A stretch of DNA of 64,000 nucleotides from Gemmatimonadota bacterium (lineage in GTDB: Bacteria; Latescibacterota; UBA2968; UBA8231). The notes beneath the pieces are model-generated. The model did no database searches, had not been told where the DNA came from, and saw only the letters and a program-made list of their open reading frames with translations. Both the position numbers and the translations under genes were made by a program. The stretch lies in the NCBI GenBank assembly GCA_009841115.1, contig VXML01000109.1, positions 38,911-102,910 on the forward strand, given 5' to 3'. Shown piece after piece: positions 16,523-43,116 of this stretch (the stretch's first letter is position 1; each line of letters opens with the position of its first letter).

Positions 16523-16592
16523 GCCCAACTCCCCCTCTCGGCCCGCTCCTCATACATTGACGACTCTATCTTGGTTGATTATCGTTCAGGGC

Positions 16593-28016: not shown

Positions 28017-30920
28017 GTGCGCCTATTGGCATTTCTTTTTGGGTTCGGTATCCCCGCGGCGGCTTTTGCCCAACTCACCATTACAGGGGCGGTCACCGAT
28101 GAACGCGGCGAGCCGCTGCCGGGTGCCAGCATTGGCGTCGTGGGCACCACCATCGGCACCACCGCCGATGCCGACGGCCAGTTCGCCCTCGTCCTGCCGT
28201 TGCCAGCGGCGGAAGTCCTGCTCGAAGCGCGGTTTGTGGGGTACCAATCCGCGCAACGCGCCATCCGCCAAAACGACGGCCTGACGACCGTTGTTTTTCA
28301 GCTTGCCGTAGATGCCTTGCAATTGGACGAAATCGTCGTCACCGGTCTTTCCGCTGCCACCAGCAGAAAGCAACTAGGCCATGCCATTTCCACTGTCAGC
28401 GCCCGACAGTTGACAACGGCCGGCACCTCGGCCCTCGACAAAGCCCTGACCGGCAAATTGGCCGGTGCGCTCGTGCAGCAAAATTCGGGCAATCCAGCCG
28501 GCGGTGCGACCGTCCGCTTGCGCGGTACTAGTACCGTGTTGGGCGACGCCGATCCGCTCTATATGGTGGACGGCGTCGTTGTCAACAACAGCTCGCCCGA
28601 ACTCATCCGCCTCGGCGGCGGGGCGCAAAACCGCCTCGGCGATCTTAACCCCAACGATGTAGAGCGCGTGGAGGTCGTCAAAGGCGCGGCGGCCGCCGCC
28701 CTGTACGGCTCGCGCGCCAACAATGGCGTCGTGCAGATCTTTACCAAGCGCGGCTCATTGGGCAAGCCGCAGCTCACCTACACTTCTCGTTTTTCAACCG
28801 CCCAAGTGCGCAAAACGCTTGCGGTCAACAAGGCACCTGTTGACAACAACGGCGACAAAAATCCCGACGGCTCGGACGTGCAGCGCTTCGATCACCAAGA
28901 TTTCATTTTTCGCCGCGCCGCTGGCACCGAGCACTACGTCTCGGTATTGGGCGGGGCCGGCCGCACCCGCTACTTTGCCTCGGGATCGTACCTAGCAGAC
29001 CAAGGCGTGGTTGCCAATAGTTCGTTTCGGCGCATGGGAGGGCGCACGCGCATCGATCAAGAATTGTCGCCTTGGGCCACGTTGTCCGTGGGCGGCCATT
29101 TCTCATTTAGCAACAGCAACGACGTTCCCAACGGCGGATTAAACTCAAACTACGGGGCATTGACGGGTTTTATTTTTGGCCCCAATACCTACGACCCCAC
29201 GCCCGATCCCACGACCGGCGCGTACCCCAACCAAGGCGTTCTCGCCAACCCATTAGAGGTCATCGACCGCTATGATTTTACGCAAGAAGTCTCGCGCTAT
29301 ATAGGCTATGCCCAACTCAATCTCGCCCCGCTATCTCGCTTGAGCATCGACTATACGTTGGGGCTTGACACCTACGATCAAACGGCCCTTGCATTTATCC
29401 CGGCTAGAACCTCCGCGCCGGGCTTGGCAAACGGCTTTGCACGCCGCGCCACCTTCGACTTTCTCCAACTCAACAACGACATCCACGTCCGCTACCAGCA
29501 GGACATAGCACCCAACGTGCAATCGACCCTGCTAGTCGGCGGAACCCTGCAATACGAAAAGGGGGCAACCTTTAGCGCGGAGGGCAAGGACCTAAGTCCA
29601 GTCGCCCAAACCGTGTCGAGCGGGGCGACCGTCGTGGCCAGCGAATTCAGGAGCGAGAAGGCCCTGTACGGCGGCTTTGTGCAGCAAACTGTGGCGTTTT
29701 CCGATCAACTGTTTCTCACCGGCGCGGCCCGCGTCGATGCCTCTTCGGTCTATGGCAAGGACCAGCGCTGGCAATTTTATCCAAAGGCCGGCGCGGCCTA
29801 TCTCATTTCAAAAGCCAGCTTCTGGCAAAACAGCGCCCTAGACGACGTGTTTGCAGACTTCAAGCTACGCGCTTCCATCGGCACATCTGGCGGTCAAACC
29901 GCCATTGGTCCGTTTGACCGCTTTACCAATTACAATGCTTCCTCGTACAATGGCCGCCCCGGCCTAGTTCCCAGCACCCAACTCGGCGGGACGATCAAAC
30001 CCGAGCGCCAGCGAGAAATCGAAGTCGGCGCGGATGTTGGTTTTTGGTCCAATCGCCTCGGCGTGGAACTCACGTATTACGATCAACATATCGACGATTT
30101 ATTGTTGATGCGCACGTTGTCCCCCTCCACCGGCCATGCGCGGGTTTTGCAAAATGTCGGCATCATGAGCAACAAGGGGTGGGAGTTGCTCGTGCGCATT
30201 ATTCCTCTAATGCGTTCCCATCTCCGCTGGGAATCGACCTTGACGTATGCGACCAACAAAAACCGCGTCGATGGTATCGAAGGCGGGCGTTTGATCCTGC
30301 CCAATTCGTTTTCGCAAGTCTCGGCCATCAACGGCAACCCCCTCGGCGTGTTCTTTAGCACGGCCTTCGCCCGCGATGCCAACGGCCACATCGCCCTCGA
30401 CGAAGACGGCCTGCCCATGCGAGCGGCTGAGCGCAAAATCATCGGCGACCCCAACCCGGATTTTACCGCTTCTTGGATCAATGAGTTCGCCGTGGGGCGG
30501 CGCTGGTCGGTGCGCGCCCAATTGGACGCGGTCGTAGGGGGCGATGTGTTTAACTTTACCCGGCGCTTGGCCGCCCTAAGTTCATTTGGCGTGTTGACAG
30601 ACTACGAACGCGAATTAAACGGCGAACTACCAGCCGGCTACAATGCGCGCGTCTTCCGCATTTTTGAACACTGGATCGAAGACGGCTCCTTTGTAAAACT
30701 GCGCGAGTTATCTGCGTCGTATCGCTGGCAGCCTGCGTTTTTGGGCACCAGCAGCGTTCAGTTGAGCTTAGTGGGACGCAATTTGTTTTCCCTCGACAAC
30801 TACAGCGGCTACGATCCAGAAACCAATGTCGCAGGCCAGCGCACGGCCGTGCGCGGCTTTGACTTTGTCGAAGTGCCCATTCCGCGCAGTTTCTCCATGC
30901 GCCTCAGCCTGCACTACTGA
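28017..30920 (+). CDS. susC: SusC/RagA-family TonB-dependent outer-membrane receptor
   Basis: N-terminal carboxypeptidase-regulatory-like ITGAVTDERGEPLPGASIGVVGTTIGTTADADGQFAL, a plug region (LRGTSTV..., PLYMVDGV) and a large barrel ending in an aromatic residue. GTG start 11 nt after the dnaK stop. Confidence 0.85.
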   Translation: MRLLAFLFGFGIPAAAFAQLTITGAVTDERGEPLPGASIGVVGTTIGTTADADGQFALVLPLPAAEVLLEARFVGYQSAQRAIRQNDGLTTVVFQLAVDALQLDEIVVTGLSAATSRKQLGHAISTVSARQLTTAGTSALDKALTGKLAGALVQQNSGNPAGGATVRLRGTSTVLGDADPLYMVDGVVVNNSSPELIRLGGGAQNRLGDLNPNDVERVEVVKGAAAAALYGSRANNGVVQIFTKRGSLGKPQLTYTSRFSTAQVRKTLAVNKAPVDNNGDKNPDGSDVQRFDHQDFIFRRAAGTEHYVSVLGGAGRTRYFASGSYLADQGVVANSSFRRMGGRTRIDQELSPWATLSVGGHFSFSNSNDVPNGGLNSNYGALTGFIFGPNTYDPTPDPTTGAYPNQGVLANPLEVIDRYDFTQEVSRYIGYAQLNLAPLSRLSIDYTLGLDTYDQTALAFIPARTSAPGLANGFARRATFDFLQLNNDIHVRYQQDIAPNVQSTLLVGGTLQYEKGATFSAEGKDLSPVAQTVSSGATVVASEFRSEKALYGGFVQQTVAFSDQLFLTGAARVDASSVYGKDQRWQFYPKAGAAYLISKASFWQNSALDDVFADFKLRASIGTSGGQTAIGPFDRFTNYNASSYNGRPGLVPSTQLGGTIKPERQREIEVGADVGFWSNRLGVELTYYDQHIDDLLLMRTLSPSTGHARVLQNVGIMSNKGWELLVRIIPLMRSHLRWESTLTYATNKNRVDGIEGGRLILPNSFSQVSAINGNPLGVFFSTAFARDANGHIALDEDGLPMRAAERKIIGDPNPDFTASWINEFAVGRRWSVRAQLDAVVGGDVFNFTRRLAALSSFGVLTDYERELNGELPAGYNARVFRIFEHWIEDGSFVKLRELSASYRWQPAFLGTSSVQLSLVGRNLFSLDNYSGYDPETNVAGQRTAVRGFDFVEVPIPRSFSMRLSLHY

Positions 30921-30942
30921 GCAACCGAGGACAAGCAAGGCG

Positions 30943-32241
30943 ATGAAAGCGACTTTTTGCGGGCTATTTATAGTAGGTGGGCTGCTTTGGGGCTGCGATT
31001 TGAACGTCGCCAATCCCAACCAAGCGTTCGAAGAGCAGGTGTTGACCACCAGCGACGGCATCAAAGCGCTGGCCATTGGTATGCAGCGCAGCTACGCCAG
31101 CAACAACGTCGATGCGTACGTGCGCCATCCGGCCATCACCAGCCGCGAGCTGGCGGCTAATACGACATTTTCCAATCTCCTAGAACTGGAAGACGGACTC
31201 GCGGCGCTGTCGGGTTCCAACAGCGCCATCGGCAGCATTTGGTCCCGCTCCTACCGCGTCATGGGCATGGCCAACGACTTGATCGCCAACGCACCCGAGG
31301 TGCCGCTGGCCGCGGGCACGCGCAGCGGCATAATGGCACTGGCGCATTTGTACAAAGCAAAGTGCTTGGGATTCGTCGCGCAGGCTTTTGCCCACGCGCC
31401 CATAGACGTGCAGGCCGATGGGCAAGCGCCGTTTAGGCCGCGTGAAGAGCTTTTCGCCGCAGCCATTGGCTCGTTGGACCGCGCCCTCGAAACCGCCACT
31501 TCCACGCCGCCATCCGACGAATTCAATGCGGACATATTGGGCGAGGGTTTTGATCTGATCAACACCATACGCGCCTATCGAGCGCGCTACCACTTATTTA
31601 CCGGAAATTATCAAGCGGCGCTCGACGCCGCCGATGCCGTCGATCCAGCAGCGACCTCGGTCTATATGTACGACGCAGAAAACGAGAATCCCCTGTACGC
31701 GCAGGTCGTCGTGGCGGACGACTACGCCCCGCGCGACCACTTTGGCCTGAGCAGCACCGAAAGCGGCGATGCGCGGCTGGCCTTTTACACCGCGCCGAGT
31801 GAGCGGACGAGCAACCCCAACGACTTTCCCATTGAGGATTTGGCTGGCTTTTGGCACTCGGCCACGTCGCCTATTCCGGCCTATCTGCCCGGGGAAATGG
31901 CCCTGACGCGCGCCGAGGCCCACGCCATGTTGGGCAACATCGACGCGGCCATCGCTGAAATCGACGCGGTGCGCACCAAAACGCCGGCCGATGATCCCTA
32001 TGGCGTGGGGGCTGCGCTGCCGCCGTACAGCGGCCTGCAATCACTTGAAGCGGTGTTGAACGAAATTTTTCGCCAGCGGCGAGCCGAGCTTTTTCTGCAC
32101 GGCACCGGCTGGGAAGACAGCCGACGCTTGGGGCAACCTGGCCCGTCGGCCGATATGTTTGAACGCAATCGAGATTTCTATCCCTACGCCGACCAAGAGC
32201 GCTTGAACAACTCCAACACCCCGGCCGACCCGGCGCAATAA
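30943..32241 (+). CDS. susD: SusD/RagB-family nutrient-binding lipoprotein
   Basis: Immediately downstream of susC. The ATG at 30943 gives MKATFCGLFIVGGLLWGC (lipobox). The helical, TPR-like composition is typical of SusD. The track start at 30826 overlaps susC. Confidence 0.75.
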   Translation: MKATFCGLFIVGGLLWGCDLNVANPNQAFEEQVLTTSDGIKALAIGMQRSYASNNVDAYVRHPAITSRELAANTTFSNLLELEDGLAALSGSNSAIGSIWSRSYRVMGMANDLIANAPEVPLAAGTRSGIMALAHLYKAKCLGFVAQAFAHAPIDVQADGQAPFRPREELFAAAIGSLDRALETATSTPPSDEFNADILGEGFDLINTIRAYRARYHLFTGNYQAALDAADAVDPAATSVYMYDAENENPLYAQVVVADDYAPRDHFGLSSTESGDARLAFYTAPSERTSNPNDFPIEDLAGFWHSATSPIPAYLPGEMALTRAEAHAMLGNIDAAIAEIDAVRTKTPADDPYGVGAALPPYSGLQSLEAVLNEIFRQRRAELFLHGTGWEDSRRLGQPGPSADMFERNRDFYPYADQERLNNSNTPADPAQ

Positions 32242-32270: not shown

Positions 32271-32477
32271 CTACGGAAGGACAGCGCGGAGTTGCAAACA
32301 GTGGCGATAGTCATTGGCCCAATCGACGAATACTGCATCGTCGGATAGTTGTCCCCGACTGTACTGGTCAAAAAACTCTTCCGAATCCATCTTCTGCTGA
32401 TTTTCGTAGGTACTCAACCGCTTGGTCACGGCAATGAGCGCGTCAATGGGCGAAGTATATTGGATGGTCAGGATCAT
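32271..32477 (-). CDS. Small hypothetical protein (antitoxin-like size), last gene of the defence block
   Basis: 68-aa ORF MILTIQYTSPIDALIAVTKRLSTYENQQKMDSEEFFDQY..., starting 17 bp after the preceding gene on the same strand. No motif recognised. Confidence 0.5.
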   Translation of the reverse strand: MILTIQYTSPIDALIAVTKRLSTYENQQKMDSEEFFDQYSRGQLSDDAVFVDWANDYRHCLQLRAVLP

Positions 32478-32494
32478 CGTTCCTCCTACTGGCG

Positions 32495-32797
32495 TTATTT
32501 GAGCAATCCCGCAGCAAATTTCTTACCGCTATCTACCGACATACGAGCACCGCCGGACATGTGTTCACTGCTGTGCAGGATGCCGATATGCCCTTGGAGG
32601 AAGTCCGCCAGTGTTCCTTGCGCCTCTAACGGTCCCATCTGCTGCTCGTGCTGAACATAGTGCTTGAGCCACAGTTGGAATTGCTCGTTCAGCGTAGTGT
32701 GCTCTTTCGCGGCGCGTTGATTCGCCGCTTCGATCAGATGCTCGTCGGCACTCAGCGTTATGTTTTTTATTTTTCCAGCTTTCTCTGACTGATTCAT
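32495..32797 (-). CDS. Putative ribbon-helix-helix-like antitoxin/regulator
   Basis: 100 aa. N-terminal KIKNITLSADEHLIEAANQRAAKEHTTLNEQFQLWLK looks like a CopG/RHH segment. It overlaps the upstream small gene by 4 nt. Confidence 0.5.
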   Translation of the reverse strand: MNQSEKAGKIKNITLSADEHLIEAANQRAAKEHTTLNEQFQLWLKHYVQHEQQMGPLEAQGTLADFLQGHIGILHSSEHMSGGARMSVDSGKKFAAGLLK

Positions 32798-32997
32798 CCG
32801 GTCTTTCTATCTGCGTTGGACGCTCGTACGTCTTCGGCTAGAGCCACTCTACGGGCCGGGTAGCGTACGTACTTCAGACCCGACTCGGCCTGTTGTTCTC
32901 GGAGTTTTCGGAAAATCTCCTTAATGTCGTAGCCGCACTGAGCGGCGAGTTCGTCTCGTATTGAACGAACTTCAGCTACAATAGGGTCATTTTTCAT
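32794..32997 (-). CDS. Small conserved protein (DPIVxEVRxxRD family), copy 2
   Basis: 67 aa, MKNDPIVAEVRSIRDELAAQCGYDIKEIFRKLREQQ... It is a paralog of the unlisted 36467-36640 gene and overlaps the PIN gene by 11 nt. Confidence 0.65.
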   Translation of the reverse strand: MKNDPIVAEVRSIRDELAAQCGYDIKEIFRKLREQQAESGLKYVRYPARRVALAEDVRASNADRKTG

Positions 32998-33475
32998 CGT
33001 CGATGTTCTCCATCAATTCTTCAGGGGTGCAGATTACGGGAGACTCGAAACCAGCCTGCCGACAGACAGACTCGATCTGCGGCCTTGTCACCGCGTTGGC
33101 GATGTGCCGGAAGTTCCAAGTAACAAGGTACTCGATACCGTTGGCTGCTGCGATAGCGATATGCGCGGCATCTCGCATTGCGGCCTCGGGTACGGCGCTG
33201 GCACTGACCAGCCTTTCGGCTAATTCTTGCGCTTCCGCGGTAGCGTCGAGTAGTGCAAGTGAAGCGAGCAGGGTGAGCCGGGCGCGGACCGCATCAGGGT
33301 CGCCTGCACCAGCCTCTTCGCGGACCAATTCGGAGATGACCAACTCGAATCTTTCCGATGCGGTAGCCCACCAGTCGCGGGTACTCTGCTGATGTCCAGC
33401 AATAACTACGTCACGCGCCGGGCGAGCAGTCAGGTAGCTGATGACCGTGGTTTCGATGTATACACGTGGTTTCAT
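32987..33475 (-). CDS. PIN-domain protein (VapC-like toxin)
   Basis: MKPRVYIETTVISYLTARPARDVV...DAAHIAIAAANGIEYLVTWNFRHI has a PIN-like acidic residue pattern. Confidence 0.75.
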   Translation of the reverse strand: MKPRVYIETTVISYLTARPARDVVIAGHQQSTRDWWATASERFELVISELVREEAGAGDPDAVRARLTLLASLALLDATAEAQELAERLVSASAVPEAAMRDAAHIAIAAANGIEYLVTWNFRHIANAVTRPQIESVCRQAGFESPVICTPEELMENIDDEK

Positions 33476-33490
33476 CAGGTTTCTGCTCTC

Positions 33491-36274
33491 TCACACCCGA
33501 AACACCTTCATCACCTCGTCCCCCAAGTGATTGATCACCTTCACCGCTATCCTACCTGACGTCGGCTTGGCAAAGGGTCGAGAGGTGTCGCTGTGGAGGG
33601 TTTCCCAGGCTTCTTGGTTGATCTCGGCTTTGAGCGTCGTCCTCAGCGATTTGTACGGGTCGCTAGCGCCGAGGAAGTAGGCGTGGCGGACGAAGAAGCT
33701 TTCCTCGTTGTAGTCGGTATCGACGAACCAGCAGGCGATGCCGTCGGCGCTGTCGCTGCGGATTTCGCCGGTGTTGGGGTGGAATACGTCCACGCCGTTG
33801 ACCTTGACTTGGATTTGGCTGTCTTCCGCGTCGAGGATGTCGATGTCCGGTTCGCCGAAGATGACGAAGAGGTTGCCTTTGCCGGTGTTTTTGAGGTCAT
33901 CGGCCATGTGGAGGTCGGCGTTCATGCGGGCCTTGAGGACGGGGACGCGGCCGAGTTTGTTGAACTCCGAGGCGTGGGCGTCGTAGTTGAAGGCGCAGGC
34001 GACCAGCACGTCGAAGTCGGCGTCCGCGGCCTCGCGCACCGCTGATACGAGATCGGGGCGGGAGACGGTGCCGAATTCCGGGCCGACGAAGATGCCTGCG
34101 CGTTTTTCAGCGCCCGAGTCGGCGTTGCCTTCGACGTAGGTTCCCTCGGCGCAGACGTGGTAGCCGGGCCAAGGTCTGATCCCGGAAAACGAGATGCGAT
34201 CGTCTTTGTGCGCCTGTTGGACGCCGGAGGTTTTGAGATTGTCGAGGATCATCTCGGCGAAGTCCTGCTTTTCGCCGTACCCTAACTTGGCTTCGGCGAC
34301 ATTGTCGATGAGTTCGTCGTTTTCATCGACGCCTAACAGGCGGTGCGGCGACAGACTTTCTACGGTGAAGGGGCCGGCGACGCGGACTTTTTTGTTGTCT
34401 TCGTAGGGCTTGTCGTAGAGGTATTCGTAGTCGGCCTTGGCGGCGATGGAAGCGTCGATTTCCTTTTGCCGGGCGATGCGCTGTTCCCACCAATCCGCGT
34501 GAATTCTTCTGACCTCCTCGGGCCAAGCGTCGTCGGCGTCGCGGGGGATTTCCCATTCCTCGTAGGATGTGCCGAGTGCGTCGTTTAATTCCGCCCGCAG
34601 CGGCTCCAGCGTTTCTTGGAATTTCTCATAGATTACGTCGATTTCGGCGTTGTTGGCGATGGACTTGAGGGTGATGTGGGGGACGCGCTCGTACACGAAG
34701 CCTTGGCGGATGTCGTTGTACGTGGGCGCTTCCGAGGGGACTTTACGGACCAGCTCAGCTTCTTTGATTTGGCCGTCGCGGCTGTCGGCGAGCAGGTAGT
34801 AGGGATAGCGCGCGCCCATGACGCGGGCGCGGGCGAGCGCGAGGGCGACGCGGGAGGTGTCGATGGTGATCCAGCGGCGACCCCACTGCTCGGCGACGTA
34901 CGCGGTGGTGCCGGAGCCGCAGGTGGGGTCGAGGACGAGGTCGCCGGGATCGGTGGTCATTAGGACGCAGCGTTGGATGACCTTTATAGTGGTTTGGACT
35001 ACATAGAATTTTTCATCGCCATATCCGCCTGTTCCTGTATCTGTCCAAATGTTTAGAAGTGGCATAACTGAGAAGTCGCTGAGAAACCTAACATGACTCA
35101 ACGACCTTCCAGTTCCCGTATATAGTCGGTCTGCTCGATTAAGTCGCTCAATGGATTCTGGGCTGGTTGACCAATAGCGGCTACCCGGAAGAAACTGCCG
35201 ACCTCGAAAATTAATAGCCTCTCTGCCTCTGCTATACTCGTGACTGGAAGTTAGATTATCTGGACGACACAATTCCTCAATTGTATAATCCGATTGATTT
35301 TTTATACGCTTGAAATGACCACCTGCTAATCGAATCCATTTGTATTGTTCCGAGCCAGGTTCACCAATGTCTTTTGAAAGATGGAGTTGTCTGAACTTGA
35401 TTGAGTCCTTGTTTCTGCAAAACCATATGATGTAATCAGAGACACTTGAAATTGCTAAATCAGTTTGGACAGCAGTCTTTTTTACAGTAATGATGGATAC
35501 AAAGTTCTCTGCCCCAAACACCTCGTCCATCAACGCCCGCACCCGATGCACATTCTCGTCCCCAATCTGCACAAAGACCGACCCGCTCTCCGCCAACAAA
35601 TCTCGCGCCACCGTCAGCCGATCCCGCAAATACGTCAAATACGAATGAATCCCATCCCGCCACGTATCCCGAAACGCCTTCACCTGCTCCGGCTCGCGGG
35701 TAATGTGCCCGGCGTTGCCGTCCTTGACGTCGCGGCTGGTCGTTGACCACTGAAAGTTGGAGTTGAACTTGATGCCGTAGGGCGGGTCGATGTAGATGCA
35801 CTGCACCTTGCCGCGCAGCCCCTCCCGCTCCGCCAGCGACGCCATCACCTGCAAGCTATCGCCTAAAATCATCCGATTCGACCAGTTGGCGTCGTGCTGG
35901 TAAAACTCCGTCTGCGCGTCCGCGCTCGGCAGCCCATTGAAATCCGCGAACAAATCCGTCTGCAAGTTAGCTTCGCCGTCCCCCGTCTCCTTGCTCCGCT
36001 GCCGCAAATCGTCAATCAACACCTTCGGATGCACCTTCTCCTGAATGAACAGCGGCGGCGCTTGCACCACCAAATCCGACCAGTTCTGCTCATCCTTCCC
36101 GCGCCAAACAAGCTGCGGATCGAGATCCCGATTGCGCCGCTCATACGCAACCTTAATCGGATTCCGGTCGTCCTCCGCCATCACCGCCTGATACTCAGCC
36201 GTGGGAATATTCTTCCGCGATGCGTCCTCGTGCCGCAGAGTTTCAACAGTCTTGGTCGATTTTCGTTTTGCCAT
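33491..36274 (-). CDS. mod: Type III-like restriction-modification DNA methyltransferase (beta-class N6-adenine/N4-cytosine type)
   Basis: Motif IV CIYIDPPYGIKF lies upstream of motif I DPTCGSGTTAYVAEQWGRRWITID. The ATG at 36274 (MAKRKSTK) is preferred over the track start at 36316, which would overlap the HicB-like gene. Confidence 0.85.
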   Translation of the reverse strand: MAKRKSTKTVETLRHEDASRKNIPTAEYQAVMAEDDRNPIKVAYERRNRDLDPQLVWRGKDEQNWSDLVVQAPPLFIQEKVHPKVLIDDLRQRSKETGDGEANLQTDLFADFNGLPSADAQTEFYQHDANWSNRMILGDSLQVMASLAEREGLRGKVQCIYIDPPYGIKFNSNFQWSTTSRDVKDGNAGHITREPEQVKAFRDTWRDGIHSYLTYLRDRLTVARDLLAESGSVFVQIGDENVHRVRALMDEVFGAENFVSIITVKKTAVQTDLAISSVSDYIIWFCRNKDSIKFRQLHLSKDIGEPGSEQYKWIRLAGGHFKRIKNQSDYTIEELCRPDNLTSSHEYSRGREAINFRGRQFLPGSRYWSTSPESIERLNRADRLYTGTGRSLSHVRFLSDFSVMPLLNIWTDTGTGGYGDEKFYVVQTTIKVIQRCVLMTTDPGDLVLDPTCGSGTTAYVAEQWGRRWITIDTSRVALALARARVMGARYPYYLLADSRDGQIKEAELVRKVPSEAPTYNDIRQGFVYERVPHITLKSIANNAEIDVIYEKFQETLEPLRAELNDALGTSYEEWEIPRDADDAWPEEVRRIHADWWEQRIARQKEIDASIAAKADYEYLYDKPYEDNKKVRVAGPFTVESLSPHRLLGVDENDELIDNVAEAKLGYGEKQDFAEMILDNLKTSGVQQAHKDDRISFSGIRPWPGYHVCAEGTYVEGNADSGAEKRAGIFVGPEFGTVSRPDLVSAVREAADADFDVLVACAFNYDAHASEFNKLGRVPVLKARMNADLHMADDLKNTGKGNLFVIFGEPDIDILDAEDSQIQVKVNGVDVFHPNTGEIRSDSADGIACWFVDTDYNEESFFVRHAYFLGASDPYKSLRTTLKAEINQEAWETLHSDTSRPFAKPTSGRIAVKVINHLGDEVMKVFRV

Positions 36275-36296
36275 TGATTGCAGTCTCTCTACTAGA

Positions 36297-36470
36297 TTAC
36301 AAATTGGAGACGCCACAAACCTCGACGGACAGACAGCCTTCGACGGCCTCGTAGAGGTTGGTCAGCAACTCTTCAAAGGATTCCCCTTGCGTCGCGCATC
36401 CGGGGATAGAGGGTACTTCCGCCCAATATCCACCTTCTTCCGCTTTATGGATCACAACTTTCAGTTTCAT
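36297..36470 (-). CDS. Orphan HicB-like (UPF0150) protein, 57 aa; not in the ORF track
   Basis: My translation: [57 protein letters not shown]. The E/D-G-G-Y-x-A-x-V-P-x-x-P-G-C pattern is the HicB N-domain signature. Its ATG overlaps the stop of the upstream gene (ATGA). Confidence 0.7.
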
Positions 36471-36640
36471 GGCTTCCTCACTTTTCTCGGGCGTTTAGGC
36501 GGCAAAGAAACCACTCTTCTTTTGCCCAGCCTCTGCTTCTCTTGTAAGTCTCGACAAATCGCATCTAGGTCATAATTGAATCTCTTAGCATACGCATCGC
36601 GTGCTTTACGAACTTCTTCGACGATTGGGTCTGGTTGCAT
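36467..36640 (-). CDS. Small basic protein (DPIVxEVRxxRD family), copy 1, 57 aa; not in the ORF track
   Basis: My translation: [57 protein letters not shown]. It starts 4 nt after the HepT stop. 18 of the first 36 residues are identical to the 32794-32997 product by hand alignment. Confidence 0.65.
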
Positions 36641-36644
36641 GATT

Positions 36645-37016
36645 TTACTCGGGGTCCTTGTTGGTCGTATTCAGCAGGTTTCTCAATTCGGGCAGCAGTT
36701 TCGGAATCGCGTCTTGAATAATTGTCCAGATGATATTGTTACTGATGCTCAGATAGCTGTGAGCCAAGCGGTTGCGCGCCCCCACAATCGCATGCCAAGG
36801 AATGTCTGGGTACGCCTCACGCACCTCGCTTGGGATATGGGTTGCTGCCTCGCCGATCAATTCCAGATTGCGCAGGGTGGCGTCATAGGTGAGTTCATCG
36901 GCGATGAACGCATCTTGGTCCAAGCCCTCGGTATAGGACAGCACCTTTTCACTGAATTCGATCATATCCTGAATGTAGAAACGCCATTCTCGCGCTCCTT
37001 GCTCAGCATTAGACAT
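36645..37016 (-). CDS. hepT: HepT (DUF86, HEPN-domain) toxin
   Basis: The R-x4-H-x-Y motif is present as RNRLAHSY. It overlaps the upstream MNT gene by 8 nt. Confidence 0.85.
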   Translation of the reverse strand: MSNAEQGAREWRFYIQDMIEFSEKVLSYTEGLDQDAFIADELTYDATLRNLELIGEAATHIPSEVREAYPDIPWHAIVGARNRLAHSYLSISNNIIWTIIQDAIPKLLPELRNLLNTTNKDPE

Positions 37017-37299
37017 TGATCACCTCCCGCTCCACGTAGGGGCGTATCTCGACGCGCAGATCTTGGTTGGTTGCCAAGTCCACCGGTCGCCCTAGTAGGT
37101 CTTCCAAATAGCCTTGAGCGCCGAAATAGCGTTGCCAATTGGGGGGCACGTCGAACCGCACTAGGACGTCGACATCACTGTCGTCCGTAGCTTGGTCGCG
37201 GGCGAAGGAACCGAAAAGGGCAAGTTCAGTAACGCCAAAGCGTTGTGCAAGGGTCGCCTTGTGCGCTCGGAGCACGTTTAGGACTTCATCTCTGTTCAT
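37009..37299 (-). CDS. mntA: MNT-type nucleotidyltransferase antitoxin
   Basis: LFGSFARDQATDDSDVDVLVRF is the minimal nucleotidyltransferase G-S-x(n)-D-x-D motif. Confidence 0.85.
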   Translation of the reverse strand: MNRDEVLNVLRAHKATLAQRFGVTELALFGSFARDQATDDSDVDVLVRFDVPPNWQRYFGAQGYLEDLLGRPVDLATNQDLRVEIRPYVEREVINV

Positions 37300-37306
37300 T
37301 TCTCCC

Positions 37307-37501
37307 TTATTTCCTTTTAATCGGTTCTACTCCGAGATCCCGGCAGATCTTTCTCGCCAACAAATCGTCGATTTCTCTGTGTCGTGGAATTGCAGAACGC
37401 CGATCACCTCGCTCATTGCGCCACCATGAGTGCCGTCTGCCTTCACGGATCATTTCGCATCTCTGTCGCCGAAGGTACTTCAGCAGTTCAACCCGCTTCA
37501 T
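37307..37501 (-). CDS. hicA: HicA-family toxin (mRNA interferase-like)
   Basis: MKRVELLKYLRRQRCEMIREGRRHSWWRN...RRSAIPRHREIDDLLARKICRDLGV is HicA/YcfA-like. It overlaps hicB by 4 nt. Confidence 0.8.
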   Translation of the reverse strand: MKRVELLKYLRRQRCEMIREGRRHSWWRNERGDRRSAIPRHREIDDLLARKICRDLGVEPIKRK

Positions 37502-37707
37502 TCAATGATGACCTTTTCCTCCTGATAGTCGTCGCCCGCAGCCGCTAGCGCATCGCGCCGGTTGAATTCCAGTGCCTCTAAAAGCGTTTCCACAAGGCTT
37601 TGCTGCAATTTCTCATGTGTACGCTCCTGACAATTCACGCCGGGAACTTCCTCGATCCAACCAATCCACCATTCGCCACTGCGTTTCACAACGGCTGTAT
37701 ATTCCAT
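37498..37707 (-). CDS. hicB: HicB-family antitoxin (short form)
   Basis: MEYTAVVKRSGEWWIGWIEEVPGVNCQERTHEKLQQSLVETLLEAL is the UPF0150/HicB N-domain pattern. Confidence 0.8.
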   Translation of the reverse strand: MEYTAVVKRSGEWWIGWIEEVPGVNCQERTHEKLQQSLVETLLEALEFNRRDALAAAGDDYQEEKVIIE

Positions 37708-37769
37708 GTTCGTTCCTTTCTCGATTGTGAGTTGGATGCCCCAAATATAACCGCCATTACAGTATCTGC

Positions 37770-40700
37770 CTAGGCCCGAAACCCCTCAACCAACCGATTA
37801 AACGCGGCGTCCATCCCGTACACATCAGTGAACTCGGCAAAAGCCCAGCGCCCGTAATCCCCGTGATTATTCACGCCAGGCACCCAATAGGTGTCCATGG
37901 TCGTCTTCTTGTCCTTGGCGTCTTCCCCCCGATAGCCCTTGATCTCGACGATCAAATTCAGCAGATCGTCGTCGCCACGACCATCATCAACGAGGACGAT
38001 AAAGTCCGGCAGGTACGTCCGCATTTCCGACCCACGACGATAGGGTACCTCCAAGCCGAGATTGTGGTTCTTGACATAGGCTTTGACGTGCGGATGGGAT
38101 TCAGCTACGCGGCAAAACTCGCCTTCCCAGTCGCTGTCGAGGACGAGCCAATTGATGTGACAACGGCGGGGATCAGCCTGCCAGCGGCTAGTCTTGGTCG
38201 TGTTGAAATTCACGTGGGCTGTCGAACCGACGGGATTGTACGGATCGAGCACCGCTTTGACTGGACGACGGTCGATTCCTTCGCGCGTGATGGCGGCAAA
38301 GATGCGCTCGCAGGCCGTGTCGGCCAGTTCCTGGTACATAAGTTGGGCGGGAAAGGTATCGCCCTTGCAGTCGAGGTAGCCATCGAGCCACTGTCTGGCG
38401 ATGCGCTTGAGCTGACCGAAGAGATAGAGCTTAGGTTCTTCGCCCGGATCGCGGAACTTGGTGTAGAGCAGACGCTGAGTTAGATGAAATAGGAGAGTCG
38501 AGGTACGCAGATCGTTAGTGTGAACCAAATTGAGATCGACGCCCTCGCCGATAATGCCTTGATTCCTTGTCCTCGACGGACCAACCAGTTCAGGCGTCAG
38601 TTCCAACATTGAGTCCCTGTTAAACTCGGCCTTGAGCCGCTCTTCCGGCAATTCCACCCGATACCCAGCTACCCGAGGAAAACAAATCTCCAGCGCATCG
38701 CGTTCGGGCCGCACGGCTCGCACCTGAACGGTCTCTCGCGGCTGCTTCGGCGGAGCCACAACGGGCTTAGCCGTAAAGTCGAACGGAATGCCCAAGACAT
38801 CCGCGTACTCGACATCGAACAAGCCGTCTTCGTTGAGATCGTAAGACTGCCGTCGCAACGCCCGGCCAATAACCTGCTCGCAAAGCAACTGCGTCCCAAA
38901 GGCACGCACGCCTAGCACATGGCTGACAGTATTCGCATCCCACCCTTCCGTAAGCATCGACACCGACACCACGCAGCGAATCGAATCCCCCAGCCGCCCC
39001 GGCTTGCCGACAGTATTCATAACCTCGCGGAGCAACTCTTGGTCGCTGATGTTCTCGGCCTGATGGAGGTCACCAGTGCGCTCGATAATCTCTCGCCGAA
39101 AGTGATCAATCTCGTCGGCAGCCATTTTGCGGAAGTTCCTATCGAGCGCGTCGCCAGATTCCAATTGTTCGCTGTCGATCAACAGCGTACGAGGCCGTGG
39201 GTACTGATTGCCCTGCTCGTCAAAATTGCGAAACAGTTCCAAGCGCCCGTTTACCAGCGTCGTCGAGCCATCGTCGTTCTCGCGGTGAAAGCCGGAGATA
39301 TAGTCGTACACCAGCTTGGAGGTCGAGGTATTATTGCAGACCACGATGAAGCACGGCGGGACGACAATGCCCTCTTTCTCCATCAACTCAAAAGTTTTCT
39401 GATAATGTCCGTACAGGGCGTCCAGCGCGGTCTGTAGCTGTATAGGCAGACTGAGGGGATCGAGGGTCTTAGCCTTACCCCGCCCCTTCTTCGGCATGTC
39501 CGTGCGGATGTGTTCCCAGAGATTGCGGAACTTGGGCATGTCGCCGCCAGGAATGTTGTCGGCCACTGGCACGCGAGGCAATTTGACGATGCCGCATTCA
39601 ATGGCGTCCATGAGCGAGAAGTCGCACATCGTCCAAGGAAATAACGTGCCTTCGGCATAGCCCGACCCGCGCAAAAAGAAGGGCGTCGCTGAAAGATCCA
39701 TCACTCGGTTGATGCCCAATTTGTCGCCGACGATTTCCAACCCCGAAATCCACAGCCGCGCCGCCTCCGTGTTCTTTTCCGCTTCCCTTCTGTCATCTCC
39801 CTTGAACTCGTCTTCCTCCCCCTCGCCCGGCTTTTCTCGATAGCAGTGGTGCGCCTCGTCGTTGAGGATCAAGACGTTCTTCATACCCATGAGCTCGGGC
39901 ATCACCCGCTGCAGCATTTGCCCCTCGGTCTCCAAGGTCGTCAGCGTCTCGCCCCGTCCCTGCAACAAGGAGCGACCACCCTTGGAAAGCTCCATGCGTT
40001 CGCGCAACTTGAAGGCGTGGTAGTTGGTGATGACGATCTTGGCCTTTTCCAAGTCGGGCAGCATGTCGTTCGGAACCAACTCGCGGCTTTGATAGTAACT
40101 GTCCGGGTCGTTCGGTTGCAGCACGCGCAAACGGTCCTTGATAGTGATGCCGGGCGTGACCACCAAAAAACCGCGCGTGAAGCGGCGGCTCTGGGGCCGA
40201 CGCACCGAGTTGACGGTCTGCCAAGCAATCAACATCGCCATGACCGTGGTCTTGCCGGTGCCGGTCGCCAACTTGAGCGCCAACCGTGGCAGAGGCAGGT
40301 CTGGATTAGCGTTGTTGTTGGCGCTCTCCAGATGGTCGAGAAAGTCCCTACCAGATCGCGTGTTAGATGCAACTTCGGTAAGCCAGATAGCAGTCTCCAC
40401 CGCTTCGACCTGACAAAAGAAGGGGCGAGTGCCACTAAAGCGGTGGTGCCGCCAGTGCTGAAGCAGGCGCGCCGTCTCTGGGGTCACCTGCCATTGGCTC
40501 GGGTTCGGCAGACCGCGCCAGCGGTCAACCTGCTGACGAACCCCGTTGATCGTCTGCATCAATTCGTATTGCTGATTATCTGTCTCAAGCTCTCTTGCAG
40601 CCTTGTCAAACACAAAGGAGGCTTGATTCGCAGATGATCCCCTTTGCTTCTTCGATGTCGGGACCGCCGAGATGAATGAGGCCCGTCTTCGGCTTTCAAC

Positions 40701-40802
40701 GATCTGCTGCGTCGGCTGCCCAGTCTCGTCCAGTTCCCAATGCCGACTCGGGCGCTCGTAAGGCGAGTTGAGGACAGGCTGTTCAAAGAATAGATCAGTC
40801 AA
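37770..40802 (-). CDS. res: Type III-like restriction enzyme Res subunit (SF2 DEAH helicase + C-terminal PD-(D/E)xK nuclease)
   Basis: Motif I LKLATGTGKTTVMA, motif II ILNDEAHHCY, motif VI-like QVIGRALRR, and C-terminal LPDFIVLVDD...LIVEIKGY. TTG start at 40802 preceded by AAGAGGTG. Confidence 0.85.
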   Translation of the reverse strand: MTDLFFEQPVLNSPYERPSRHWELDETGQPTQQIVESRRRASFISAVPTSKKQRGSSANQASFVFDKAARELETDNQQYELMQTINGVRQQVDRWRGLPNPSQWQVTPETARLLQHWRHHRFSGTRPFFCQVEAVETAIWLTEVASNTRSGRDFLDHLESANNNANPDLPLPRLALKLATGTGKTTVMAMLIAWQTVNSVRRPQSRRFTRGFLVVTPGITIKDRLRVLQPNDPDSYYQSRELVPNDMLPDLEKAKIVITNYHAFKLRERMELSKGGRSLLQGRGETLTTLETEGQMLQRVMPELMGMKNVLILNDEAHHCYREKPGEGEEDEFKGDDRREAEKNTEAARLWISGLEIVGDKLGINRVMDLSATPFFLRGSGYAEGTLFPWTMCDFSLMDAIECGIVKLPRVPVADNIPGGDMPKFRNLWEHIRTDMPKKGRGKAKTLDPLSLPIQLQTALDALYGHYQKTFELMEKEGIVVPPCFIVVCNNTSTSKLVYDYISGFHRENDDGSTTLVNGRLELFRNFDEQGNQYPRPRTLLIDSEQLESGDALDRNFRKMAADEIDHFRREIIERTGDLHQAENISDQELLREVMNTVGKPGRLGDSIRCVVSVSMLTEGWDANTVSHVLGVRAFGTQLLCEQVIGRALRRQSYDLNEDGLFDVEYADVLGIPFDFTAKPVVAPPKQPRETVQVRAVRPERDALEICFPRVAGYRVELPEERLKAEFNRDSMLELTPELVGPSRTRNQGIIGEGVDLNLVHTNDLRTSTLLFHLTQRLLYTKFRDPGEEPKLYLFGQLKRIARQWLDGYLDCKGDTFPAQLMYQELADTACERIFAAITREGIDRRPVKAVLDPYNPVGSTAHVNFNTTKTSRWQADPRRCHINWLVLDSDWEGEFCRVAESHPHVKAYVKNHNLGLEVPYRRGSEMRTYLPDFIVLVDDGRGDDDLLNLIVEIKGYRGEDAKDKKTTMDTYWVPGVNNHGDYGRWAFAEFTDVYGMDAAFNRLVEGFRA

Positions 40803-40821
40803 AACGATACACCTCTTAGTT

Positions 40822-40905
40822 AGTGGTTAGTGATCAGTGGTTAGTGGCAAGCCCTCGCAACACCCTCGCCTATGGAACACTACTGGCCACTGATCACTAA
40901 CCACT
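40822..40905. repeat. 19-bp perfect inverted repeat with TTAGTG heptad-like sub-repeats, between the adh stop and the res start
   Basis: AGTGGTTAGTGATCAGTGG (40822-40840) is the exact reverse complement of CCACTGATCACTAACCACT (40887-40905), with a 46-nt spacer. TTAGTG occurs three times on the left and CACTAA twice on the right, and each arm has a TGATCA core. Confidence 0.8.
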
Positions 40906-40910
40906 GGCCA

Positions 40911-41945
40911 CTAACCCTGCGGCATAAACATCAGCTTAATCCCCTCTTGCCCCTCGGCCATGTCAAAAGCCCGCTGCCATTCGCTCAGGGCAAAGTGGTG
41001 GGTAATCAGCTTCTCGCTGGGAATAAAGCCCCGCTCGATCAGCCGCAGCGCCCGCTTCCAAGCCGGTCGCCGCTGCCCAATGCCGCCGGAGACCTGAAGC
41101 TCGTTGTAGGCGATCTTCTCAAAGTCGATCTCCACCGGCGCACCCGGCAGACCCATCTGGGAAAAGCGGCCCCGCTTGCGCACAAGTTCCAAGGCCAACC
41201 GCATAGCCGGTGCCACCCCCGCGCACTCGACCACTACGTCCGCACCATAGCCGCCAGTCAACTCGCGCACCCGCGCCACCGGATCGCAGGCCGTAATATC
41301 GATTGTATGTTGCACGCCCAGTTCCTCGGCCAGTTGCAGCCGCTCGGTATCCCGCTCCGTGCCGCAGAGAATCACCGTCCCCCCTTCGGCCAGCGCCACT
41401 AATGCCGAGAATAGCCCCACCGGCCCAGGCCCGGTAATGGCGACAAAGTCCCCAGCCGTCACGCCAGCCTGCTCAATGACCGAATGCACGCAGCAGGCCA
41501 ACAACTCGGTCAGGGCACCAGCTTCAAACCCCACGCCCTCGGGCAGCTTGTGGACAAAAGTCGCATTGCAGTAAGGCGCGAAGCAGCCGTGGTGCCAGTA
41601 GCCCATGACTTTGCGCTCGGGGCAGAGGTTGTAGTGCTCGCTCAAGCAGTAGTCGCAGTCGCCGCAGATGTACACGCTCGGCTCGCCCGTCACGCGGTCG
41701 CCCACCTCGACGTGGTCGCCGACCTCCGCGCCCTTTTCCACCACCACGCCGCTGAACTCGTGTCCCATGACGACCGGCGTCTGGATGTTGTAGTTGATGG
41801 TATCGCGGTACACGTGCAGATCCGATCCGCAAATCCCAGTGGCCTGCACCTCGACTTTCACCTGATTGGGGCCGGGCGGCGCATCCGCTAAGTCGCGCAG
41901 CTCGACAAATCCGTCACCGCGCTGGTATTTGACCACTCCCTGCAT
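40911..41945 (-). CDS. Zinc-dependent medium-chain alcohol/polyol dehydrogenase
   Basis: GICGSDLHVY, GHEFSGVV, the structural-zinc cysteines CGDCDYC, and the Rossmann motif GPGPVGL. Confidence 0.85.
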   Translation of the reverse strand: MQGVVKYQRGDGFVELRDLADAPPGPNQVKVEVQATGICGSDLHVYRDTINYNIQTPVVMGHEFSGVVVEKGAEVGDHVEVGDRVTGEPSVYICGDCDYCLSEHYNLCPERKVMGYWHHGCFAPYCNATFVHKLPEGVGFEAGALTELLACCVHSVIEQAGVTAGDFVAITGPGPVGLFSALVALAEGGTVILCGTERDTERLQLAEELGVQHTIDITACDPVARVRELTGGYGADVVVECAGVAPAMRLALELVRKRGRFSQMGLPGAPVEIDFEKIAYNELQVSGGIGQRRPAWKRALRLIERGFIPSEKLITHHFALSEWQRAFDMAEGQEGIKLMFMPQG

Positions 41946-41947
41946 TG

Positions 41948-42958
41948 CTATTCTCCTTCGGCTAATTTGAGCCGGTCACCCGCCTTGATCTCCCCGGTGG
42001 TGCGGATCACGCGCAAGCTGGCGAGTCGGGTGCTGATGATTTCAGCGACTTCGACGAGGGCGACAGACTCTTCAGGGTCTAGCCCCTCGGCCTTGATCCG
42101 CTCGTCGCCGGGATAGACGAAAAAGCGCAAGCGCGGCCGCACGCCGTGTTCGCTGCCGATATTGGCGTAGATGTCCTCGCTGTACACGGCAATGACCTCG
42201 GGCGCGTCGCCCTTGAACACCAAGCCCTCCGGCTCGAAAGCAGCAACCACCTTGTGCACCAACTCACCCACGGCTTCTACCGTCGCCTGACCCAACAAGG
42301 TTTGGCGGAACTCCTCCGAGCCAAACTCTAGCTCCTTCAATCCGGCAAATTGCAAGTCCTGCTCGCGCGGCTTGCCCAACAAGTCGAGCCCCACATCGCG
42401 GTCGGTGAGTTCGCGGAGTGCCTCAGTCTTACCGATCGCGCTGCCGTCGTCAATCCGCGCGATCTCGACGCTCATCTGCGCCACCGCCGAATAGGACTTG
42501 TACCCTCCCACCAAGGGATCCCCCACCGACAGGCGGCGCATATCGTAGTCTTGCAACAGGCCCATAATAACGAAGTCCGCCCCCAACTTGCGGCCAATCG
42601 CGAGGGCCTGCTCGTGGCTGGCAAACCCCTGTTCCATAGCCAACTCGGCAACCGCGTCAAAAGGGACGACCTTCCAATTGCGCACGACCACCAGTTCCGC
42701 GCTGAGCATGTTAGCCAACTCGTATTCGACGTTCCACACGCCCTCGCGAAACCCCGACTCATCGACAAACGGCACCACGGCCACAAAGTCGGGCCGCGGG
42801 CCAGAACCATAGCGCTGGCGCATCTCCAAATACTGCTCTAACGCACTCGGCGGTGGCGGCGGCGGCTCGGATTTCTGCCATTCATCCGGGCCTCCCTCGG
42901 GAGAGGTCAGAGGGGCGCAACTACACCAAAAAAGGAATGCAACAGTCCATTTTTTCAT
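41948..42958 (-). CDS. Putative periplasmic/outer-membrane lipoprotein (CsgG/LpoB-like; weak call)
   Basis: The ATG at 42958 gives MKKWTVAFLFWCSCAP (signal/lipobox-like). FVAVVPFVDESGF... resembles the CsgG/LpoB-type N-domain. Function is uncertain. Confidence 0.5.
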   Translation of the reverse strand: MKKWTVAFLFWCSCAPLTSPEGGPDEWQKSEPPPPPPSALEQYLEMRQRYGSGPRPDFVAVVPFVDESGFREGVWNVEYELANMLSAELVVVRNWKVVPFDAVAELAMEQGFASHEQALAIGRKLGADFVIMGLLQDYDMRRLSVGDPLVGGYKSYSAVAQMSVEIARIDDGSAIGKTEALRELTDRDVGLDLLGKPREQDLQFAGLKELEFGSEEFRQTLLGQATVEAVGELVHKVVAAFEPEGLVFKGDAPEVIAVYSEDIYANIGSEHGVRPRLRFFVYPGDERIKAEGLDPEESVALVEVAEIISTRLASLRVIRTTGEIKAGDRLKLAEGE

Positions 42959-43116
42959 CGCGAATTCCACCCAGAAAAAGTGTGGTCCTACCACGCGGCA
43001 TAAAAAGCGACCTGCCCGGTTTTATGTCAACGCAGAGCGGCGCGCACCTTGACAGTGTTTTCCCTCGGCGATACGTTGCCAACGCACCCCTCCACGCCAC
43101 TTCCAACTTGCTGCTC

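Follow-up and report, generated by a model that had tools for sequence, protein, structure and literature searches.

A probable type III-like restriction-modification operon with exchangeable toxin-antitoxin cargo at a defence hotspot of a Latescibacterota-like chromosome

Gene content of the block

Within a stretch of 64,000 nucleotides (nt) from contig VXML01000109.1 of assembly GCA_009841115.1 (positions 38,911 to 102,910 of the forward strand; hereafter the window, the numbering of which is used for all positions), the block from 32271 to 40802 consists of twelve open reading frames (ORFs), all on the minus strand, that comprise the two genes of a type III-like restriction-modification (R-M) system, res and mod, and ten small genes, six of them in the interval between res and mod and four downstream of mod (Table 1). 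The largest gap in the block, from res to the first HicB-like gene, measures 62 bp, five junctions overlap (HicB/HicA by 4 nt, MNT/HepT by 8 nt, 57-aa protein/second HicB-like protein by 4 nt, PIN/67-aa protein by 11 nt, and 67-aa/100-aa protein by 4 nt), and the remaining junctions are gaps of 4 to 17 bp. The G + C content of the block is 55.7%, lower than the 59.6% of the remaining window, the small genes ranging from 47 to 58% and the central region of mod lying at 41.7%, and it is flanked by genes of housekeeping type, susD (PF07980) and the zinc alcohol dehydrogenase (ADH) gene adh (ADH_N, ADH_zinc_N). A first-pass annotation made from the sequence alone had described such an AT-richer run of twelve co-oriented ORFs, with the same maximal gap and five overlaps of 4 to 11 nt, between housekeeping-like flanks, had pointed to the DEAH and D...EIK motifs in Res and to DPPY and TCGSGTT in Mod, and had read the block as a type III-like R-M system interleaved with genes of the toxin-antitoxin (TA) type; all this is borne out by the ORF coordinates and translations, the junctions and the family profiles.

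Res, a member of the BPTD_3080 family, matches the NCBIfam model NF046055 with 1363.9 bits (cut-off 800) over residues 6-1004 of 1010 and model positions 1-969 of 970. Its helicase part is recognised by PF04851 (ResIII, E = 1e-8), and PF19778 (RE_endonuc), which is precomputed on many Res homologs, scores 22 bits, just below the cut-off of 23.4. The match to the classical type III Res model PRK15483 amounts to 14.7 bits (cut-off 564), PADLOC REase_III aligns in short stretches with E = 5e-4 to 1e-3, and a search of the PDB gave no solved relative at E ≤ 0.01. As Res is only weakly matched by REase_III, the pair may be overlooked by tools that depend on models of this kind.

Mod reaches 1413 bits with PADLOC MTase_III (PDLC03632) and has a PF01555 (N6_N4_Mtase) match at E = 5e-31 over residues 171-493. 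Among solved structures its best relatives are Mod subunits of type III systems (6k0w, 4zcf), including EcoP15I. DPPY lies upstream of FxGxG, with a variable region in between. Although the ORF reaches a GTG at 36316, tblastn alignments in relatives begin at the methionine of MAKRK, and the likely start is therefore the ATG at 36274, 22 nt past the stop of the second HicB-like gene. None of the relatives aligns at the DNA level to the centre of mod, 35006 to 35499, whereas the flanking parts of the gene align at 70-97%; a non-homologous centre of this kind usually indicates that recognition domains have been swapped. The PADLOC matches shown for Res and Mod are all of R-M type (REase_III, MTase_II/III, orphan MTase, one weak mad2). 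By their sequences, res and mod are an intact type III-like R-M pair in the order res then mod. Homologs of Res are 74-95% identical in protein and 70-93% in DNA and occur in Latescibacterota, Acidobacteriota, Poribacteria, Planctomycetota, Alphaproteobacteria, Nitrospirota, Actinomycetota, Chloroflexota and other phyla; for taxa so far apart this identity is unusually high, which implies, as far as sequences tell, a recent and wide horizontal spread. A literature search for 'BPTD_3080' found no papers.

By profile and neighbourhood the cargo of the window can be divided into three complete modules (HicB/HicA, MNT/HepT, and PIN with the 67-aa protein) and four orphans among the ten small genes (the 57-aa protein, the second HicB-like protein, the 100-aa protein and TumA). 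Of the four addiction-type pairs counted in the first-pass annotation, three can thus be retained as complete, and its 68-aa protein turned out to be TumA, one of the orphans. The HicB-like/HicA pair is also found in the numbered relatives L020, L010 and L081 (see below). MNT has a PADLOC PDC-S09 match at E = 6e-29 and reaches 43.9 bits with NF047752, under the cut-off of 60, just as HepT stays with 41.8 bits below the NCBIfam equivalog cut-off of 60; both motifs of a type VII MntA/HepT system and the overlapping pair architecture are present, and MNT/HepT is accordingly placed by its scores as a family member, not as an equivalog.

Between the 57-aa and the 67-aa protein, which are paralogs, the identity in alignment is 37%. 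For the 57-aa protein there was no Pfam, NCBIfam or PADLOC match, and its 525 homologs, none of which is named, form a family without a Pfam model. In three unrelated genomic contexts a gene of this family is preceded, with an 8-nt overlap, by a gene for a 161-aa protein with precomputed, weak PIN matches. Because the family follows a 161-aa PIN gene in unrelated contexts, the PIN gene and the 67-aa gene of the window can be regarded as one complete module; the 57-aa gene, upstream of which a PIN gene is absent, is then an orphan. The order of PIN gene and then partner recurs in L010, L011 and L018 as well as outside R-M loci, and a 50% identical PIN homolog (L018:15877-16347) exceeds the PF01850 cut-off of 23.6 with 26.9 bits; the solved-structure search for the PIN protein itself gave no meaningful match. 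The family thus likely represents, together with PIN, an undescribed toxin-partner module with the toxin gene first.

As to the remaining orphans, the second HicB-like protein clears the Pfam cut-offs, and behind its homolog in L003 comes a gene for HicA (PF07927, E = 5e-14), a toxin that is missing in the window. The 100-aa gene follows a 67-aa gene also in L003 and L084; its former label as ribbon-helix-helix-like could not be confirmed, DUF6364 at E = 0.03 being the sole profile match. TumA belongs to the TumE/TumA system (PMC10584680), but no TumE (DUF6516) lies beside it: its 100-aa neighbour has no DUF6516 match, and on the other side follows susD on the opposite strand.

Table 1. Features of the block and its flanks, and sites of an insertion in mod of relatives (positions in the window unless a locus is named)
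Feature	Position	Strand	Description
susD	30826..32241	+	PF07980; right flank, also in L001 and L081
TumA antitoxin	32271..32477	-	68 aa, orphan; NF045776 118 bits (cut-off 100); PADLOC PDC-M44A E 1.4e-34
100-aa protein	32495..32797	-	DUF6364 E 0.03 only; no PADLOC match
67-aa protein	32794..32997	-	Paralogous to the 57-aa protein; putatively the cognate partner of PIN, overlapping it by 11 nt
PIN putative toxin	32987..33475	-	162 aa; PF01850 weak, E 0.011
mod	33491..36274	-	Type III-class DNA methyltransferase, ~927 aa; ORF extends to a GTG at 36316
Variable centre of mod	35006..35499	-	G + C 41.7%; presumed target-recognition domain
Second HicB-like antitoxin	36297..36470	-	57 aa, orphan, immediately upstream of mod; PF21748 29 bits, PF15919 28.8 bits
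57-aa protein	36467..36640	-	Orphan; family normally follows a 161-aa PIN gene
HepT	36645..37016	-	123 aa, HEPN RNase toxin; PF01934 E 3.5e-28; RNRLAH (Rx4H)
MNT	37009..37299	-	96 aa, MntA-like nucleotidyltransferase antitoxin; PF01909 NTP_transf_2 E 1e-15; GS...DxD motif
HicA toxin	37307..37501	-	64 aa; PF07927 30.5 bits (cut-off 27)
HicB-like antitoxin	37498..37707	-	69 aa, HicA partner; UPF0150 weak, E 0.005, 17.1 bits (cut-off 27.3)
res	37770..40802	-	1010 aa; superfamily 2 (SF2) DEAH helicase with C-terminal PD-(D/E)xK-type nuclease; BPTD_3080 family
Hairpin	40812..40915	-	Inverted arrays of 7-nt repeats between adh stop and res start; 24-nt arms
adh	40911..41945	-	Zinc ADH (ADH_N + ADH_zinc_N); conserved chromosomal left flank of the island
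mod insertion	L007:17864-18315		
mod insertion	L019:17122-17573		
mod insertion	L024:18000-18422		
mod insertion	L028:9001-9422		
mod insertion	L034:17057-17460		
mod insertion	L037:19760-20223		

Variation of the cargo among relatives

The relatives compared are the best 80 species-level loci (L001 to L080; further contigs carry higher numbers) out of at least 568 loci, mostly from metagenome-assembled genomes, with a Res that is in all cases at least 73% identical; their ORFs were called mechanically and some genes are frameshifted (L001, L081). Both res and mod are present in 62 of the fetched relatives, and in all 62 res precedes mod. The distance between the two genes ranges from 23 bp to 4659 bp, being 23-103 bp in 15 of these loci, about 250-275 bp (at least 248) in two, and at least 480 bp in the other 45. 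Cargo, differing from locus to locus, was found in the spacer of 47 of the 62 (about 76%) and in many phyla, so that embedding as such recurs in about three quarters of the relatives. What does not recur is the interleaved order of the window, as revealed by the synteny comparison anchored on Res and Mod. The idea of a single defined twelve-gene system, the part of the first-pass interpretation that did not hold, is therefore not supported, since 15 of the 62 relatives have mod directly next to res and the other 47 carry different cargo; relatives with adjacent R-M genes and with the small genes absent or elsewhere, which that annotation had named as evidence against such a system, are largely what was found.

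Among the 116 spacer ORFs, Pfam recognises HATPase_c_4/Schlafen proteins (11), MNT (9), HicB-like antitoxins (7), IrrE-type peptidases with a helix-turn-helix domain (6), PIN (5 + 2), Bro-N (4), DUF4411, HepT and HicA (3 each), BrnT and Fic (2 each), and, as single genes, a GmrSD-like protein (GmrSD_N), YhcG, an ABC-ATPase (AAA_15/21) and NYN. The Pfam-supported cargo is in every case encoded on the strand of res and mod; ORFs called on the minus strand in the spacers of relatives, which are without Pfam support, are probably spurious. Some of the cargo families match the embedding-derived candidates PDC-S09, PDC-S13, PDC-M44A and HEC-05 of PADLOC. The spacer contents offer a list of candidates for new defence or TA genes, such as the 57/67-aa partner of the 161-aa PIN protein. 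The commonest cargo in the spacer, the free-standing Schlafen ATPase, aligns with the N-terminal portion of the 1121-position PADLOC pAgo model.

The closest view of this turnover is offered by the adh site. A left flank of a CsgG-like gene and adh is common to twelve species-level genomes labelled as Latescibacterota, with ADH proteins that are 94-99% identical, and L001 has in addition the susD/susC right flank; in contigs L081 and L084 the ADH protein is 100% identical. The islands at this site in 13 genomes (the twelve species-level ones and L081) carry 13 cargo sets, no two of them alike, in up to three slots. Examples are BrnA-57aa-MNT-HepT in L001, IrrE-DUF4411-BrnA-MNT-HepT in L002, IrrE-57aa-HicB-HicA in L003, a lone Schlafen ATPase in L009, nine small genes in L020, and another distinct set in L081, and additional cargo lies downstream of mod in most of these genomes and upstream of res in some. 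Orphans and truncations are frequent, such as MNT without HepT, HicB without HicA, BrnA without BrnT, or a 56-aa PIN stub in L007.

Contig L084 has no Res, and its Mod is reduced to a C-terminal stub of the last ~60 codons. In place of the R-M genes it carries an Argonaute gene coding for a 1122-aa Schlafen(AlbA_2)-HATPase_c_4-Piwi fusion (L084:5596-8964), followed after three small genes by a 1260-aa SIR2_2 protein (L084:9933-12403), and yet it retains MNT/HepT and the trio of 67-aa protein, 100-aa protein and TumA. As the small genes are kept without Res and nearly all of Mod, they appear to be independent of the R-M pair, and since the cargo varies at one and the same site and L084 has exchanged the R-M genes for the Schlafen-Piwi fusion, the junction between adh and susD can be considered a strain-variable defence hotspot. 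An empty junction was not encountered among the loci fetched, and no integrase, tRNA gene or transposase is associated with the island in the window. As a set for comparison the adh site is unusually clean, with as many cargo sets as genomes (13) at a single position and a strain whose R-M genes are replaced by an Argonaute gene.

Traces of cargo movement, transcription and repeat elements

In eight relatives the slots contain partial duplicates of the ends of the R-M genes, namely of the 3' end of res (L002, L006, L021), of the 5' end of mod (L005 with 331 bp at 97.6%, L018 with 646 bp, L015, L012), and of the 5' end of res (L066). A duplication scar was not found in the window itself. The identity of the cassettes is also decoupled from that of the R-M genes; for instance, MNT/HepT of the window is 96-97% identical to its counterpart in L002 and 70-75% to that in L001, while Res is 93-94% identical in both. 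At the cassette boundaries of the window, where the junctions measure from -11 to +62 nt, there are neither junction repeats or attC-like sites nor recombinase genes, the only long ORFs of the island being Res, Mod and one of 263 aa on the opposite strand inside res. Cassettes of the integron type were rejected on these grounds, with no repeats at the boundaries and no integrase in the island.

The scars suggest that cassettes may be stacked by recombination. The DNA identity of res and mod lies between 70 and 97% in at least 15 bacterial lineages, and one might go further and regard the BPTD_3080 R-M pair as a carrier of cargo across phyla, with res and mod as portable homology arms, any cargo between them (TA modules, Schlafen ATPases, GmrSD-like enzymes) being swapped and stacked through homologous or homology-facilitated recombination in which no dedicated recombinase takes part; this extension is put forward tentatively, the odds being somewhat against it. 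If true, the scars in the eight relatives would be its footprints, and the model would offer a specific mechanism for the spread of embedded defence genes.

With regard to mod itself, the gene of L002 (16409-18421) lacks residues ~273-528, the variable centre included, and its gene product is probably inactive, and L053 has a 1.47-kb insertion near the 3' end of mod (15771-17242) that contains a 355-aa ORF.

Scans of the window for sigma-70-type promoters and intrinsic terminators gave counts at or under the expectation from shuffled sequences, a promoter-like match in the gap between res and the HicB-like gene (37772-37744) was not significant, and a hairpin with T-run after the TumA stop was rejected as an operon terminator because it folds no better than shuffles (z = 0.0). 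Neither tRNA genes nor known RNA families were detected in the window. Since the gap between res and mod is just 23-103 bp where it holds no cargo, the promoter of mod probably lies upstream of or within res; cargo in this gap would therefore be co-transcribed with mod or supply mod with a promoter of its own. Co-transcription of the cargo with res and mod is thus likely on the basis of the gene arrangement.

Between adh and res lies a strong hairpin built of the 7-nt units AGTGGTT/AGTGATC/AGTGGCC, with an RNA fold of -44.9 kcal/mol (z = -4.2), which ends about 10 nt before the ribosome-binding site of res. For the motif of its arms the window has four occurrences, where 0.01 would be expected. 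The hairpin is present in all contigs of the same strain, has no alignment in L001, and is found again at L007:5408-5480 and 9749; an adh terminator, an RNase III site or a mobile repeat are candidates for its role. Inverted heptamer repeats of the same kind flank a 400-460 bp insertion in mod (Table 1), which relatives belonging to several phyla carry at one and the same codon, after GNLFVIFGEPD. In another frame it encodes a 122-aa 23S-rRNA-intervening-sequence protein (PF05635, E = 1e-37 to 1e-39), and the frame of mod stays open through it in at least L007 (an ORF of 1112 aa), L019 and L024; in L009 and L025 the insertion is degraded. The site corresponds to about 33810-33843 of the window, where mod is without insertion. 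By these properties it looks like an element of the intervening-sequence type inside a protein-coding gene.

On the adh side, beyond the CsgG-like gene, two long plus-strand ORFs of 1157 and 1237 aa (42853-49982) have counterparts in contigs of the same strain with PDDEXK_1 and UvrD-helicase/PDDEXK_1 domains, i.e. an AddAB-like pair, which looks like ordinary chromosomal context.

Interpretation and comparison with known systems

The block is probably best explained as an intact R-M operon with slots for exchangeable TA cargo, the spacer between res and mod and the region downstream of mod, situated in a defence hotspot next to adh on a Latescibacterota-like chromosome. From family knowledge, Mod would methylate an asymmetric site and Res would cut unmethylated DNA at the expense of ATP, while HicA, HepT and PIN would act as RNase toxins that are neutralised by HicB, MNT and the 67-aa partner, respectively, MNT modifying HepT by AMPylation according to the type VII paradigm. 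Each TA module would act autonomously, possibly as an abortive-infection back-up, and the cargo would be read through with the R-M genes, because hardly any space is left between the genes for signals and because mod, which lies beyond it, has to be expressed. Cassettes would be gained, stacked and lost via recombination between R-M alleles, for which the conserved res and mod would provide the homology arms, and the four orphan genes of antitoxin type look like remnants of eroded modules. Several points weigh against this explanation. Co-transcription and the activities of Res, Mod and the toxins are predictions, the gene content of the relatives depends on mechanical ORF calling in 80 top-ranking loci out of at least 568 that stem mostly from metagenome-assembled genomes, the window carries no duplication scar so that a recombination route at this locus is reasoned from its relatives, and the presence of spacer cargo in 13 of 13 same-site relatives and in about 76% overall could reflect selection for a functional link.

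Such a link is the essence of an integrated layered defence, in which the toxins would be wired to the R-M system and be set off by a failure or inhibition of restriction, like PrrC guarded by EcoprrI, shared transcription being part of the mechanism. In its favour, the genes are co-oriented and closely packed, with stops that overlap starts, and embedding recurs in about three quarters of the relatives, across phyla; precedents in which embedded genes defend and complement the host system exist in PrrC (PMC12707154, PMC3710099), TgvAB (PMC11411939) and the BrxU and HEC candidates (bioRxiv 10.1101/2024.01.29.577857). However, the cargo is different in every relative and absent in 15 of 62, orphans make up four of the ten small genes in the window, L084 keeps the same small genes without Res or Mod, and the TA families involved are generic, autonomous and found also outside R-M loci, all of which makes a wired system unlikely. 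It is still less likely that the cassettes are addiction modules selected for stabilising the R-M island against loss, even though intact TA modules, three in number, lie beside and between the R-M genes and the island is kept at one site across twelve species-level relatives. Relatives without cargo retain res and mod nevertheless, L084 lost Res and Mod despite MNT/HepT and other small genes, and the frequent loss of toxins that leaves orphan antitoxins behind is a picture of decaying, not of maintained, addiction. In addition, R-M systems are themselves addictive. An assembly or binning artefact, i.e. a chimeric contig joining small genes to an R-M pair, might come to mind in view of the metagenomic source and of frameshifts in a related long-read contig (L081), but can be regarded as refuted: identities of 99.8-100% to the window were obtained for seven contigs, each from an independent sample, and one of them from an independent metagenome (L082), which is 99.9% identical to 35764-51567 and spans the region from adh to the 5' end of mod, has the identical order Res-HicB-HicA-MNT-HepT-57aa-HicB-Mod. 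Since independent assemblies reproduce the gene order, the arrangement is real, and an R-M operon with exchangeable cargo remains the preferred explanation.

When compared to known systems, the R-M pair resembles the type III systems EcoP15I and EcoP1I in that DPPY of Mod precedes FxGxG with a variable region in between and Res combines an SF2 helicase with a C-terminal PD-(D/E)xK-type nuclease. It differs from classical type III systems in the order of res then mod, in a Mod that is longer by ~280 aa and has an uncharacterised C-terminal half, and in a Res outside the classical Res sequence families. HicA, MNT, HepT, PIN and TumA belong by family to the known type II/VII modules HicAB, MntA/HepT, VapBC-like PIN and TumE/TumA and have the typical two-gene overlap architecture. 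Unlike in known modules, the PIN partner belongs to an unannotated family and is encoded downstream of its toxin, TumA, one HicB-like gene and one paralog of the PIN partner lack toxins, and MNT and HepT remain below the NCBIfam equivalog cut-offs. As regards the site, Hochhauser et al. reportedly described in 2023 that chromosomal defence-island hotspots of E. coli are flanked by core genes (cited in PMC11411939). The junction of adh and susD is similar to such hotspots, as it holds either the R-M genes with various cargo or Schlafen-Piwi and SIR2, but here turnover also occurs inside the R-M operon, and no integrase, tRNA or transposase is linked to it in the window. An assignment to MANTIS/Gao_RL, Hma or BREX was rejected, because the block is without ATPase or other core gene and its PADLOC matches are of R-M type; for MANTIS the composition was taken from bioRxiv 10.64898/2026.09.23.753747.

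The embedding pattern itself has already been published, and the locus fits it as one more example. 'Guilt by embedding' was described for Hma, BREX, DISARM and type I R-M hosts with 96.7% co-orientation of the embedded genes (Payne, Hughes, Fineran & Jackson 2024, bioRxiv 10.1101/2024.01.29.577857), and further cases are PrrC in the type IC system EcoprrI (PMC12707154), HEPN families in R-M operons (PMC3710099), and TgvAB inside the type I R-M system of V. cholerae VPI-2 (PMC11411939). When the literature was searched for type III systems with TA genes in between mod and res, phasevarion and general papers only were found, and neither this search nor the one for 'BPTD_3080' gave a description of a BPTD_3080 host, of its three slots, of the stacking of many TA genes or of duplication scars. 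In common with the embedded genes of Payne et al. 2024, unrelated co-oriented genes lie between host components and vary in content among homologs, and the cargo families overlap (GmrSD-like/HEC-05, HEPN, PIN, ABC ATPases). In contrast to the hosts of that study, the host is here a two-gene type III-like R-M system of the BPTD_3080 family, and up to about nine small genes per slot, three slots, and duplication scars of host genes in relatives are further differences. With this locus a widespread, uncharacterised family of two-gene type III-like R-M systems joins the hosts of embedded genes, and the scars left by duplication give a hint of how cargo of this kind moves.

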